DNA from: a virus
Taxonomy: Duplodnaviria; Caudoviricetes
DNA length: 64,000 nucleotides
Strand: one strand, 5' to 3'
IMG/VR virus record: IMGVR_UViG_3300024229_000651
Part shown: positions 9,449 to 40,071 of the stretch, piece after piece
Layout: every line of letters starts with the position of its first letter
How positions within the stretch are numbered: the stretch's first letter is position 1
The notes under the pieces: model-generated
Databases searched by the model: none
What the model saw: only the letters and a program-made list of their open reading frames with translations
Told to the model about the DNA's origin: nothing
Position numbers and translations under genes: made by a program

Positions 9449-9476
9449 ATTATACTGGTTTTTGGGGAGAAGTCAA
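9449..9476 (-). promoter_or_regulatory. sigma70 early promoter
   Basis: TTGACT-16-TATAAT. Confidence 0.75.
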
Positions 9477-19626: not shown

Positions 19627-19655
19627 ATTATACCGGTTTTTCCGGCTAGAGTCAA
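19627..19655 (-). promoter_or_regulatory. Consensus sigma70 promoter
   Basis: TTGACT-17-TATAAT; TAAGTGCTTGATTACA motif at 19671-19686 upstream. Confidence 0.8.
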
Positions 19656-24661: not shown

Positions 24662-25078
24662 TTAATCCTTATCAAACTCTAGAACTAACTTATTTTGTAA
24701 ACGCCGTGCTTCTTTCTCCCACGGCTGATCCCAATATGCAATATGGTCTACATACCTGTTGCTTTTCCATCTGGACATGCAGGGGTCTAGTTCGCTATTA
24801 GCAAATTGCTTTACATGAACCATTTCATGTGCAAGAGTGCTCAGCCAATTACCAAATAGTGCTACATCGATAACAAAGTTTCGATTATCGACTGCTTCGC
24901 AGAGACCCATACTGTTTTCTTTATCAACAAAAAGATTGTTATGAATTTTAATATGCAGATTTGTATGCAGGCGACTAATACCTAATTGCTTTGCAAAACT
25001 TTTGACAGCTAACGTTGCATATGCTTGTAAGCCAATATCCAACTCAGCACCACGTGGACCAGTAACAGAAATATTCAA
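24662..25078 (-). CDS. HExxH zinc-metallopeptidase-like protein
   Basis: LSTLAHEMVHVKQF, QPWEKEA; own promoter TTGACA-17-TATAAT at 25108-25136. Confidence 0.65.
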   Translation of the reverse strand: MNISVTGPRGAELDIGLQAYATLAVKSFAKQLGISRLHTNLHIKIHNNLFVDKENSMGLCEAVDNRNFVIDVALFGNWLSTLAHEMVHVKQFANSELDPCMSRWKSNRYVDHIAYWDQPWEKEARRLQNKLVLEFDKD

Positions 25079-25144
25079 ACGTATTCTCCTACGTAAACAA
25101 TGTGGATATTATAGTTGAAATGACCAGTCATGTCAACCGAAATA

Positions 25145-25234
25145 ATTGTAGTGGACAAAGGTACACTTAGGGAATTTACAAGGATACATCCTAACCCAAT
25201 TTACGAAATACCAGCCGCTTTGCCCAACTACAAT
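25145..25234 (-). ncRNA. Candidate ~90-nt small RNA with paired ends
   Basis: ATTGTAGTTGGGCAAAG pairs with CTTTGTCCACTACAAT; begins at the expected +1 of TTGACT-16-TATAAT (25239-25266). Confidence 0.55.
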
Positions 25235-25328
25235 ACGTATTATAATGATATTTGGGCTAAAGTCAACCTTTTTTTTGTGTTTGCTAAGTGCTTGTTTTTG
25301 TTACGGTTTTTGTACGGAAGTTAAGAGA

Positions 25329-25703
25329 TCAAACGAGTTTGTGCCACGGATCTCCAGGTTCTAGCCCGCTTACGTACAAAAAAGTGTACCCTATGCGTTC
25401 TAGTTGTTGTTTGGTTTTTACTGAAGTTTGCCTGTTATCGAGTATATAATTACCTGATGCACAAACTAAGTGCATCTCACCAGTTTCGCATTTACATACC
25501 ACTAATCTACTATCAAGCTCTTCCTTACGAATTTTAGTCCTACATGCAATAGCAAACCCATCGCAGTCATCCTTAATGTCTGACATATCATCGGGAAATT
25601 GCCAATGCTCATTCATACCATGCATTTCAGTGTCAGTTTTATATGTGAACGCTTTGCTAATATCAGTATGGATCTGGTCGACTATTTCTTTTATATCTTT
25701 CAT
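25329..25703 (-). CDS. Transglutaminase-like cysteine peptidase (BTLCP/C93-like)
   Basis: DCDGFA, HLVC, YILDNR (Cys-His-Asp). Confidence 0.75.
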   Translation of the reverse strand: MKDIKEIVDQIHTDISKAFTYKTDTEMHGMNEHWQFPDDMSDIKDDCDGFAIACRTKIRKEELDSRLVVCKCETGEMHLVCASGNYILDNRQTSVKTKQQLERIGYTFLYVSGLEPGDPWHKLV

Positions 25704-25906
25704 TAGCAGTCTGCCTCCTCATTACGCTCCTTCCAATCCTCACATCCTTTTATTGTTACTTCTTCACCGAGGTTACCCCAAGTGTCTGCATCATTCTGAT
25801 AATTGCCCGGAGCAACATATTGCTCGTTACCTTGCTCTACGACTTGATCTGTATCGCTACATGCTATTAGTAGTGACATACCTACCACGATTAGTATATT
25901 CTTCAT
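25703..25906 (-). CDS. Small lipoprotein
   Basis: MKNILIVVGMSLLIAC lipobox; start 25906 after AAGGAG. Confidence 0.7.
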   Translation of the reverse strand: MKNILIVVGMSLLIACSDTDQVVEQGNEQYVAPGNYQNDADTWGNLGEEVTIKGCEDWKERNEEADC

Positions 25907-25949
25907 ATGAATTCTCCTTTTGCAACATGTATTTGTATTTATTACAGCC

Positions 25950-25975
25950 AAAAAAATAGGGCCCGTAGGCCCTAT
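25950..25975 (-). terminator. Intrinsic terminator after fibre gene
   Basis: ATAGGGCC-TACG-GGCCCTAT followed by a T run. Confidence 0.85.
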
Positions 25976-37901: not shown

Positions 37902-40071
37902 AACTGATCTCTCCTTCTTCGCTAGTTGATACAGTTATGCAAACATCTTTAAGGTCTTCGAAGAGTAGTTTCTTACTGAGAGGTATTTTAATTAGTCTCT
38001 CAAATAAACGCTTTAAAGGTCTCGCTCCCATTGTGGGTTCGTATCCGTTTTCAATAAAGTATTCCAATGTATTATCGTCAAATACAATCTCTATATTCTT
38101 ATCTGATAGTTGTTGATTTGTTTCCTCTATCACTCGCTTGACAATTTTACCGATCACATCCTTATCTAACTTGTTGAATCGTATCACAGTATCAAGCCTG
38201 TTTCTAAATTCTGGAGTAAAGAATGACGTAATAGCTGTGACGTCTGTGTCAACTTTAGTGTTCTTGCCAAAACCAATTTTAAGTTTCTCTGCATCAGCAG
38301 CACCTAAGTTAGATGTCATAAGCAAAACTACATTTGTAAAGTCTGTTGTTTTGCCTGTTGCACCAGTCAGTCTACCATCGTCCATAACTTGCAACAATAC
38401 CTGTAATACTTCAGGTGCGGCTTTCTCAACTTCGTCTAATAGTAACACACAGTTGGGATAATTCTCTACAGTAGTTAGTAGTTGACCTTGCCCCATCTTG
38501 CCTTCAGCATGTCCTACATATCCAGGAGGAGCACCAATCAGTTTGCTCACGCTGTGACGTTCCTGGTACTCACTCATATCAAATCTAACTAATTTGCAGT
38601 CTAGTTCTTCTGCAAGTTGCTTTGCAGTTTCTGTTTTACCTGTTCCAGTAGGCCCAACTAATAAGAAACTACCCACAGGCTTATTCTTTTCTCTCAAACC
38701 AGACTTACTAACTAGTACTGCTTCTACTATCTTGTCAATGGCTTCGTCTTGCCCGTATACTTTTGTCTTAATGCGTTTGTCTAGGCTTTTATACCCCACA
38801 GTGCTGTCCACATCAATGACATCCTTACCAATGTTGCTCATTTTGCTGACAACAGTTAGAACATCATCCATGTCTACTATAGTTACACCTTTTAGTTTTG
38901 CTCTAGCTGCAGCACTGTCCATCACATCAACTGCCTTATCTGGAAAATACTTGTTCTTGATATATCTGTCAGCTAAGTCCACACACCGCTCTGCTAAGTC
39001 ATCTGACATCTCGACCTTGTGAAAATCTTCAAAGTTGGGCTTGAGGCCTTTGAGAATTAATATAGTATCTTCTACGTTTGTAGGCTCAACATCAACTCGT
39101 TGGAATCGACGCATCAATGCTCTATCTTTTTCAAAGTGTGTGCTGTACTCGTCACTGGTCGTAGCACCCATAGTAAGCAATTTACCTCTGCCCAGTATAG
39201 GTTTCATAAGGTTAGCAATATCTACGCTACTACCTCCGGCTGCGCCTGCGCCCATAATCATATGTATTTCGTCGATGAACAGAATTACATCTTTGTTCTT
39301 TTCCAAGTTGTCTAATACAATTTTAATCCTTTCTTCAAAGTCTCCTCTGTATCTTGTACCTGCTAACAACGAACCTATGTCTAAACTGAATACTGTTTTG
39401 GATTTTAATGCAGCAGGCACTTGCCCTTCTACAATCTTTAATGCCAAGCCTTCTGCAATAGCTGTTTTACCTACGCCTGGCTCGCCAATCAAAATTGGAT
39501 TATTCTTTTTTCGTCTTGCAAGAATATGCACAACTTCATCAACTTCTTCTGAACGTCCTATAAGTGGATCTATTTCACTTTGTGCGGCTTTCTCATTTAA
39601 GTTAATAAGAAATTCTTCTGCTTCTTTGAGGCTGTCTTCAAGTATGTTAGACTTATTAACAACTTCTACAATTTTCTTTTTGTTAATACCGTTCAATTCA
39701 CATAGATAAGATGCGTGTGTATCGCTTTCGCTTAGTATACTAATAAACAAATCTACTGAAGATATTTGTTCCCTAGCATTAAATATTACTTGGGCAAAGG
39801 CTCGCTGTAGTGCACGTTCTATGGACACAGTTTTTTTAGGCCTACCTTCGTAAGGGATCTCACCTACAAGCCCATTAAAATTATTTGCCTCTAAATAAGT
39901 TTCTAGATCATCTTTAGCTGTGAGCCAATCGCACTCTATTTCTTCTAAAACAGCAACCACATTCTCATCATCAAACAGGCTCACCACAAGGTGCTCTAAT
40001 GTAACATACTCGTGTTGCTTTGCTTGTGCAGAGTCTACTGCGTTTGATATGATTAAGTCCACATTACTCAT
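37879..40071 (-). CDS. clpA: ClpA-like AAA+ unfoldase
   Basis: Clp-N domain, GEPGVGKT, FIDEIH, GPTGTGKT, LDEVEKA, KIGF ClpP-docking loop, MGARPL. Confidence 0.92.
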   Translation of the reverse strand: MSNVDLIISNAVDSAQAKQHEYVTLEHLVVSLFDDENVVAVLEEIECDWLTAKDDLETYLEANNFNGLVGEIPYEGRPKKTVSIERALQRAFAQVIFNAREQISSVDLFISILSESDTHASYLCELNGINKKKIVEVVNKSNILEDSLKEAEEFLINLNEKAAQSEIDPLIGRSEEVDEVVHILARRKKNNPILIGEPGVGKTAIAEGLALKIVEGQVPAALKSKTVFSLDIGSLLAGTRYRGDFEERIKIVLDNLEKNKDVILFIDEIHMIMGAGAAGGSSVDIANLMKPILGRGKLLTMGATTSDEYSTHFEKDRALMRRFQRVDVEPTNVEDTILILKGLKPNFEDFHKVEMSDDLAERCVDLADRYIKNKYFPDKAVDVMDSAAARAKLKGVTIVDMDDVLTVVSKMSNIGKDVIDVDSTVGYKSLDKRIKTKVYGQDEAIDKIVEAVLVSKSGLREKNKPVGSFLLVGPTGTGKTETAKQLAEELDCKLVRFDMSEYQERHSVSKLIGAPPGYVGHAEGKMGQGQLLTTVENYPNCVLLLDEVEKAAPEVLQVLLQVMDDGRLTGATGKTTDFTNVVLLMTSNLGAADAEKLKIGFGKNTKVDTDVTAITSFFTPEFRNRLDTVIRFNKLDKDVIGKIVKRVIEETNQQLSDKNIEIVFDDNTLEYFIENGYEPTMGARPLKRLFERLIKIPLSKKLLFEDLKDVCITVSTSEEGEISFGNSQQK

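Follow-up and report, generated by a model that had tools for sequence, protein, structure and literature searches.

The species 1 and species 2 RNAs of T4, RNAC and RNAD, are stable small RNAs that are encoded by the phage, sit with its tRNA genes and come from the same transcripts and the same processing as the tRNAs. Their function is still listed as unknown (PMC9697503). In HK022, the put RNAs (putL and putR) are stretches of ~70 nt located just downstream of an early promoter, which act through their fold on a universally conserved host machine and do so without a phage protein (PMC9378689). Y RNA, YrlA and 6S are non-coding RNAs whose paired 5' and 3' ends form a long closing stem and whose internal loops are conserved. 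The HMP-PP thiS riboswitch carries its conserved nucleotides in a hairpin directly before a U tract (PMC6478431), and the IMG/VR catalogue of Fremin and Bhatt lists 8,495 candidate structured RNAs, some of them near tRNAs (PMC10690425).

A 90-nt element from a marine giant phage (IMG/VR record IMGVR_UViG_3300024229_000651; 339,794 bp) was analysed in a window of 64,000 nucleotides, the whole stretch of DNA under study, the genes of which lie on the minus strand. The element belongs to an uncatalogued, phage-restricted RNA family, named here the 'twin-GUAAAUU' RNA, that is without a match in Rfam 15 or in cultured phages. Like RNAC and RNAD, it is phage-encoded and sits with phage tRNA genes; the T4 RNAs, however, are longer, are classed as late and show no similarity to the element (blastn, 50,697 phage records), whereas members of the element family, drawn from many phage lineages, are near-invariant and usually head the array. 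HK022 put consists of two stem-loops arranged in a V with an RNA triplex and is found at both early promoters, whereas the element is a single-copy rod closed by its own 5' and 3' ends. The position downstream of an early promoter that characterizes put was found at 24 of 61 family loci, and at 11 of the 61 the element follows the stop codon of an ORF.

The closing stem of Y RNA and YrlA has a counterpart in the element (15 bp here, 8-23 bp across the family), which is likewise non-coding with conserved internal loops, and a likeness to Y RNA or 6S had been proposed in the initial annotation, made from the sequence alone. That likeness did not survive comparison. The Rfam models Y_RNA, YrlA and 6S gave no match to the element. 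The Ro-binding helix of Y RNA is conserved in sequence, whereas the element helices next to the loops (P2) covary freely, and a search for a Ro60/Rsr partner by PF05731 (TROVE), in which positive controls responded, found none in this genome or in four other element-bearing phage records. 6S is a rod of ~180 nt with a large central bubble resembling an open promoter, whereas the element has 90 nt and two small asymmetric loops. Membership of the Y RNA, 6S and tRNA families was rejected on the lack of an Rfam match and of a cloverleaf by ARAGORN or RF00005.

The element resembles the HMP-PP thiS riboswitch in having conserved nucleotides within a hairpin directly before a U tract, but it has no consistent downstream gene family, many members lack a U tract and abut a tRNA, and helix P1 is far longer than a ligand-sensitive stem. 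Riboswitch membership was rejected on the heterogeneous downstream genes and the many members without an expression platform. The catalogue of Fremin and Bhatt shares with the element family its data source and its basis in covariation in viral contigs; none of the motifs highlighted in the text of that paper, to which the comparison was confined, matches the element, and the family may be among its 8,495 unnamed candidates (PMC10690425).

Fold of the element and its setting in the phage genome

The element occupies positions 25234-25145 (-) of the window sequence and lies between two promoters, promoter P1 and promoter P2 (Table 1). Promoter P1 (TTGACT-16-TATAAT, 25266-25239 (-)) is of the sigma-70 type with an 11/12 match, confirming the promoter that had first been read from the sequence, and the hexamers of promoter P2 (TTGACA at 25136-25131 and TATAAT at 25113-25108 (-)) match at 12/12 positions and are kept in syntenic relatives of the locus. 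Promoter-like sites are not in excess in the 5-kb region (13 found, 13.1 expected from shuffles); genome-wide, however, near-consensus promoters number 45 on the minus strand and 7 on the plus strand, which indicates that they are real signals despite the absence of a local excess. Judged only by the promoter type, the candidate RNA would be made early.

Table 1. Features of the element and its surroundings, listed in the direction of transcription (window coordinates)
Feature	Position	Strand	Evidence or remark
BTLCP-type peptidase (BTLCP/Peptidase_C93) gene, upstream of element	25329-25703	-	context
Promoter P1, -35 hexamer TTGACT	25261..25266	-	genome-wide near-consensus promoter class
Promoter P1, -10 hexamer TATAAT	25239..25244	-	spacer 16 nt
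Helix P1, 5' strand, bulged U at 25226; expected transcription start 25231-25234	25219..25234	-	pairs in register in every family member
J1/2 bulge, GCGGCU here; family consensus NCGARU	25213..25218	-	alignment A1, columns 19-24
P2 helix, 5' strand GGUAU	25208..25212	-	pairs with 25160-25164; covaries across family
J2/3 loop UUCGUAAAUU, first GUAAAUU at 25204-25198	25198..25207	-	invariant in A1
P3, 5' strand GGG	25195..25197	-	pairs with CCC 25170-25172
P4 apical hairpin AGGA-UGUA-UCCU	25181..25192	-	double compensatory changes in all four pairs; loop free in sequence and length
J4/3 loop UGUAAAUU, second GUAAAUU at 25179-25173	25173..25180	-	invariant in A1
P3, 3' strand CCC	25170..25172	-	family alignment
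J3/2 loop UAAGU; family consensus UARGU	25165..25169	-	family alignment
P2 helix, 3' strand GUACC	25160..25164	-	family alignment, RNAalifold
Helix P1, 3' strand	25145..25159	-	pairs with 25234-25219
U-rich tail UAUUUCGG after helix P1, UUUUUCGG in relatives; candidate leaky intrinsic-termination tract	25137..25144	-	
Promoter P2, TTGACA-17-TATAAT	25108..25136	-	serves downstream SprT-like gene; outside RNA
SprT-like HExxH protein gene, 138 aa, downstream of element	24662..25078	-	context

Helix P1 consists of 8 bp, the bulged U25226 and a further 7 bp that include one G·U, giving 15 bp where a bulged end helix of ~16 bp had been proposed. Its 5' end lies 5-8 nt past the -10 box, at the expected +1, and its 3' end is followed by UAUUUCGG and then by the next -35 box, so that the coordinates agree with the earlier placement of both arms; the apical hairpin and the two GUAAAUU copies flanking it are likewise present as described. 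The tail reads UAUUU in this phage and UUUUU in relatives. No minus-strand ORF of at least 20 aa lies inside the element, in keeping with the original judgement that the region holds no credible one, and the sole internal ATG (25189-25187), which opens an 18-codon frame, is ACG or ACA in close relatives. ARAGORN, which found all the neighbouring tRNAs, reported no tRNA or tmRNA at the element, and the consensus terminator scan is not built to admit a 'loop' of 60 nt. The single sequence has a minimum free energy of -24.2 kcal/mol (z = -1.84), a stability reached by 10 of 200 shuffles; the single-sequence fold barely beats shuffles, and it is the comparative evidence that settles the reality of the structure.

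An early-type promoter cassette is repeated genome-wide, comprising AAAAAGG-TTGACTT, a spacer, TATAAT, the leader AGTATACATA-R-TTA-R-GCAAA-GGG and an ATG ~10 nt further on, with examples in the window at 19655, 18661, 17409, 9476 and 9123 (-). The 5' strand of helix P1 is 84% identical over 56 nt to the cassette leader at genome positions 38898-38954, and the closing helix in this phage seems, on this similarity, to be built from the standard promoter leader. A decamer at 25285-25294 (plus strand TAAGTGCTTG, minus strand CAAGCACTTA), already noted upstream of promoter P1 in the initial annotation, is found at one or more further promoters of this class: it stands ~20 nt before the -35 box at 19655, and a degenerate version precedes the promoter at 9476. 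It could be a UP-like element or a regulator-binding site.

The SprT-like protein encoded downstream of the element matches phrog_10499 and, weakly, DUF6782, and its homologue at another family locus (L173) matches Pfam SprT-like. A small lipoprotein-like ORF (25703-25951 (-)) has a signal peptide with LIAC and, together with the BTLCP/Peptidase_C93 and SprT-like HExxH genes, surrounds the RNA gene as a trio that is conserved in every syntenic relative (L086-L103). Six tRNA genes lie beside the element in the window (Rfam at gathering thresholds, ARAGORN). Relatives of 98% identity (L098-L103) carry a 127-aa AdoMet-decarboxylase-like ORF (PF02675) in the tRNA cluster, downstream of tRNA-Leu, and no counterpart is seen among the ORFs of the tRNA cluster in the window; turnover of small genes in the cluster seems to be rapid.

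A family of RNAs with covarying helices

A syntenic search through the downstream gene found no element within 3 kb at the best 80 loci with SprT-like homologues, and the SprT-like homologues of 19 other phages have one promoter or none and no element. A cis-regulator of the SprT-like gene was rejected on these 80 loci and on the presence of the gene at only 18 of the 61 family loci. Homologues of the upstream peptidase led to syntenic contigs, and four syntenic relatives, which are sequence variants, keep promoter P1, the element and promoter P2. They differ by compensatory changes, from C-G to U-A in helix P1 and from A-U to G-C in P4, and by a change from G·U to G-C.

The interior is almost unchanged among the syntenic variants, and a 22-base interior pattern was therefore chosen for scanning: TCGTAAATTGGG, a gap of 8-24 and GTAAATTCCC, with unconstrained flanks. 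The pattern fixed nine of the ten J2/3 bases (UCGUAAAUU) and left the leading U free. It matched 47 viral and 59 metagenome contigs, 106 in all, and helices P1 and P2 are present in all but 4 of these although the pattern did not require them. The closing helix forms in perfect register from unrelated sequence, with 43 distinct 5' strands and lengths of 8-23 bp. Relaxed patterns added 12 members that are single-base variants of the GUAAAUU loops, among them one AUAAAUU variant in J4/3, and a pattern in which P3 GGG/CCC was left free still returned no member with another P3. The family as now defined, including the 12 relaxed-pattern members, holds ~61 distinct sequences from uncultured marine and freshwater phages. 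Its covariance model scores 81 bits at 25150-25228, the only copy in this genome, and five other records, among them genomes of 333 kb and 259 kb, likewise hold a single copy each.

Searches outside this set returned no further members. A blastn search with three variants against 50,697 deposited phage records had no match among cultured phages. The element has no match among the 4,227 models of Rfam 15, with 0 hits in 25050-25350 even at E<=10, upholding the initial impression that it belongs to no recognised family; at 13 other element-bearing loci Rfam reports tRNAs only, none of them overlapping the element. A literature search by motif string gave nothing relevant. Among prokaryotes, scanned as one genome from each of 185,579 species, the pattern matched twice, both times without P1 or P2. 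A module with twin GUAAAUU and GGG/CCC and without P1 or P2 was seen at L210:3385-3414 (Paenibacillus cookii genome) and in a few metagenome contigs (L181, L199, L158 and L182), one type of it being flanked by a short CCGGA/UCCGG helix. Such modules may be chance occurrences, of which ~1-2 are expected by our estimate, or a minimal relative of the motif.

The consensus reads, from 5' to 3', P1, NCGARU, P2 (GGUMU), UUCGUAAAUU, GGG, UU, P4, UGUAAAUU, CCC, UARGU, P2' (GKACY) and P1', in which ~40 nucleotides are nearly invariant, P4 is variable, and P1 is free in sequence with a length of 8-23 bp. Covariation statistics were calculated on 55 distinct sequences, with 500 shuffles as one control and partners slid by 1-3 columns as the other. 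Paired cells amount to 86.7%, compared with 64.7% in shuffles, and the covariation score is 0.613, compared with 0.196 in shuffles, none of the 500 reaching 0.613, and about 0.13-0.18 with slid partners. In helix P1 the inner eight pairs are formed in 91-100% of the 55 sequences; the innermost four are paired in 100% and show up to six pair types, and the next four in 91-96%. The P2 helix is paired in 99.6% of cells and occurs as GGUAU/GUACU, GGUCU/GGACU, GAUCU/GGAUU and GACUU/GAGUC, with three doubly changed pairs. RNAalifold, given the alignment alone, returns the same rod with 25 pairs, 20 of which have double compensatory changes.

Within the helices G·U pairs outnumber A·C pairs by 159 to 9, which indicates that the structure forms on the strand of the element only, that is, as RNA. 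Mutual information picks out the secondary-structure pairs only and no further tertiary contacts. A candidate helix between the bulge and the loop (CGAR/UUCG) is 98.6% compatible with the alignment, its changes being one-sided only, and on our geometric reasoning it is hard to reconcile with P1-P2 stacking. In our judgement, both the structured RNA and its family are established. The initial annotation had proposed a dedicated non-coding structured RNA with its own consensus promoter and had named relatives lacking compensatory changes as the finding that would speak against it; the relatives show such changes overwhelmingly, and family covariation bears the proposal out.

Transcript contexts of the element

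Three transcript contexts recur across the family. In the first, a -35/-10 promoter of the element's own ends 2-10 nt before helix P1, as at 24 of the 61 distinct loci, and a transcript from it begins at the base of the helix. Seven loci (L110, L112, L184, L194, L208, L249 and L251) have TGTACA, 17 nt and TAGATT, TACATT or TAGGAT before the element in place of TTGACA...TATAAT, which may be a lineage-specific promoter type. In the second context a tRNA starts 0-8 nt past helix P1, most commonly tRNA-Glu and also tRNA-Asp or tRNA-Lys. All 89 of the 89 tRNA genes within 3 kb of an element are on its strand, and the element heads the array in most lineages that have tRNAs close by. At L161, L179 and L186 a conserved non-coding sequence of ~100-140 nt, starting AAUAGGGGCCUUAGAGCUCGGG, lies between the element and tRNA-Glu, and may be a second structured RNA.

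In the third context, at 11 of the 61 loci, the stop codon of a 220-aa ORF comes right before the element, which has a P1 of 16-23 bp and a U-run and looks like the terminator of that gene. A U-run of at least four follows helix P1 in 22 of the 61 members. Several lineages have, behind a long P1, a U-run, a Shine-Dalgarno sequence and an ORF that starts 16-22 nt past the helix; there is no room for a promoter, and the element is thus physically a 5' UTR and must allow read-through. The 13 commonest neighbouring gene families are co-oriented with the element, and neighbours include replication and early functions such as DNA ligase, UvsX-like and DnaB-like proteins and peptide deformylase, none of which is universal. 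Co-occurrence of any one protein family with the element reaches 18 of the 61 loci at most, the number with a SprT-like homologue downstream, mostly in a few syntenic clades.

Transcription in this phage is weakly documented by seawater metatranscriptome assemblies. In three of four contig sets, a contig of 24-33x extends from the tRNA cluster up to 25189, 25206 or 25254, and the depth of RNA contigs further upstream of those ends is 0-8x, with gaps in cover beyond 25255; the late tail-fibre gene reaches 220-450x in the two runs covering it. The RNA contigs, which are contig-level data, span the element, promoter P2 and the downstream gene. They give a weak hint of activity at promoter P1 and of read-through of the element and promoter P2 by some transcripts, and since they bridge the element, U-tract termination in this phage is at best partial. 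A GC-rich palindromic hairpin with U tracts (25956-25975) follows the 1,168-aa tail-fibre gene; RNA contigs end there, with depth falling from the level of the tail-fibre gene to <10x in most runs, and the hairpin behaves as expected of a late-gene terminator.

Candidate functions of the twin-GUAAAUU RNA

The account preferred here, tentatively and with a confidence just short of even, is that of a discrete stable RNA with invariant loops that would bind a conserved partner, and with release either by leaky termination at helix P1 and the U tract or through processing of tRNAs. In this phage, host RNA polymerase would start at the consensus sigma-70-type promoter P1, and the 5' strand of the closing helix, P1, would be transcribed first. 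The RNA would then zip into the rod P1-P2-P3-P4, presenting the two asymmetric GUAAAUU loops and the 6-nt bulge, which are near-invariant. Helix P1 and the U-rich tail would most likely serve as a leaky intrinsic terminator, and the products would be an RNA of ~90-95 nt and read-through transcripts that extend to the SprT-like gene and tRNA cluster. Other phages would free the module from a tRNA precursor by RNase P-type processing, as suggested by the tRNA 0-8 nt behind P1, or from the 3' ends of mRNAs. Folding of the invariant loops would create a specific three-dimensional site, and a highly conserved partner, probably part of the host tRNA, translation or RNA-processing machinery, would recognise it in trans; the protein sponge or decoy first suggested for this RNA is a plausible function of this kind.

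An autonomous RNA is favoured because the element is single-copy, occurs in at least three unrelated transcript contexts and always closes its own ends. Its independence of context, with its own promoter, before a tRNA or after an ORF stop codon, fits an autonomous product. The RNA contigs that bridge the element and a tail that is only UAUUU here speak against a discrete RNA, and the strong bias towards the first position in tRNA arrays, which is not required of a purely trans-acting RNA, also counts against the preferred account.

The main rival, itself unlikely, is a put-like modifier of RNA polymerase: a cis-acting nascent RNA that would bind the transcribing polymerase and bring about processive antitermination as HK022 put does, securing read-through of a poorly translated tRNA or early operon. 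Such a role would suit the promoter-proximal position at 24 of the 61 loci, since putL, of ~70 nt, lies just downstream of PL (PMC9378689), as well as the co-orientation with all 89 tRNAs and the 13 commonest neighbour families. Unrelated downstream genes (tRNAs, SprT-like, DNA ligase and small ORFs) suit a generic function in transcription, a near-invariant core in marine and freshwater phages suits a universal target such as RNA polymerase, and the RNA contigs reading through the U tract and promoter P2 are a weak hint in the same direction. However, even phages of 330-340 kb, which have dozens of similar promoters, carry a single copy, and the downstream genes of this phage have a second full promoter immediately behind the element, which makes them independent of promoter P1. 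Moreover, 11 lineages have the element at the 3' end of an ORF, where its long P1 and U-run resemble a terminator of that gene, and neither its shape, a rod closed by its own ends rather than a V of two stem-loops, nor its sequence is similar to put.

A riboswitch-like attenuator, in which an aptamer embedded in a terminator would bind a ligand, an ion or uncharged tRNA through its loops and so tune termination at P1 and the U tract, is considered improbable. Variable helices around invariant junctions are the typical conservation of an aptamer, a U-run directly follows P1 in 22 of the 61 members, often with a Shine-Dalgarno sequence and an ORF next, and the HMP-PP thiS riboswitch provides a precedent for an aptamer within a terminator hairpin (PMC6478431). 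Yet no gene family is consistently regulated, the downstream genes being tRNAs, DNA ligase and unknown small ORFs; in many members a tRNA comes straight after a P1 of 8 bp, and an expression platform is missing; and a P1 of 15-23 perfect pairs forms with or without ligand. Nor does the J1/2 triplet track the identity of the downstream tRNA: it is GAR whether tRNA-Glu, tRNA-Asp or tRNA-Lys follows, and a T-box-like specifier was rejected on this count.

Quite improbable is a mimic of the tRNA-Tyr anticodon loop, by which the RNA loops would act as a decoy for a host tRNA-targeting nuclease or tRNA-modifying enzyme and the element would be an RNA-only anti-defence gene. For 36 of 55 sequences the second loop with the last P4 base reads CUGUAAAU, exactly as do the anticodon loop and next base of the two phage tRNA-Tyr genes in element loci, a match that was noticed after the fact; the first loop reads UCGUAAAU. 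Both retron-Eco7 PtuAB and Septu are documented to target tRNA-Tyr, and phages respond by supplying a tRNA-Tyr of their own (PMC11555353, PMC13096335). This phage has 10 tRNA genes and no tRNA-Tyr, and of the 201 tRNAs called in the 120 loci with an element, a set that includes near-duplicates, only 2 are tRNA-Tyr. For a link to TGT (queuosine/deazaguanine), PF01702, a profile blind to phage DpdA, had no match in five element-bearing records or in this genome. Mimicry of rRNA or an antisense role towards it was rejected, as none of five core variants compared by local alignment with E. coli 16S, 23S and 5S in both senses scored above shuffles (z<2.5).

A self-cleaving ribozyme or processing signal that would set the 5' end of a tRNA precursor or mRNA is regarded as very improbable. 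The element is small, has conserved internal loops within variable peripheral helices, is restricted to phages and adjoins tRNAs as many small ribozymes do, but it matches no Rfam ribozyme model, its ~40 invariant positions are more than is usual for small self-cleavers, and where a promoter is seen the transcript starts at P1 and has no leader to remove. Finally, a chance inverted repeat, a promoter-leader remnant in a tandem-promoter arrangement or an 18-codon micro-ORF is hardly credible, because the modest z-score, the resemblance of P1 to the cassette leader and the internal ATG that would suit these origins are outweighed by family-wide covariation in ~61 distinct sequences from unrelated contexts, which refutes them, by the replacement of the ATG in the closest relatives and by the lack of an element at the SprT-like homologues of 19 other phages.

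With ~40 near-invariant nucleotides held in place by helices that have been completely rewritten many times, the twin-GUAAAUU RNA is under very strong selection, and conservation of such a kind has earlier pointed to riboswitches, ribozymes and RNAs that dock onto core machinery. The family occurs in ocean and lake phages, including genomes of 260-340 kb, and yet has no match in Rfam or among cultured phages; it is now defined by a consensus, a covariance model, ~61 sequences and three genomic contexts. Its place at the head of tRNA arrays bears on the question of why phages carry tRNA clusters, in which host tRNA-directed defences and the control of transcription both come into consideration.
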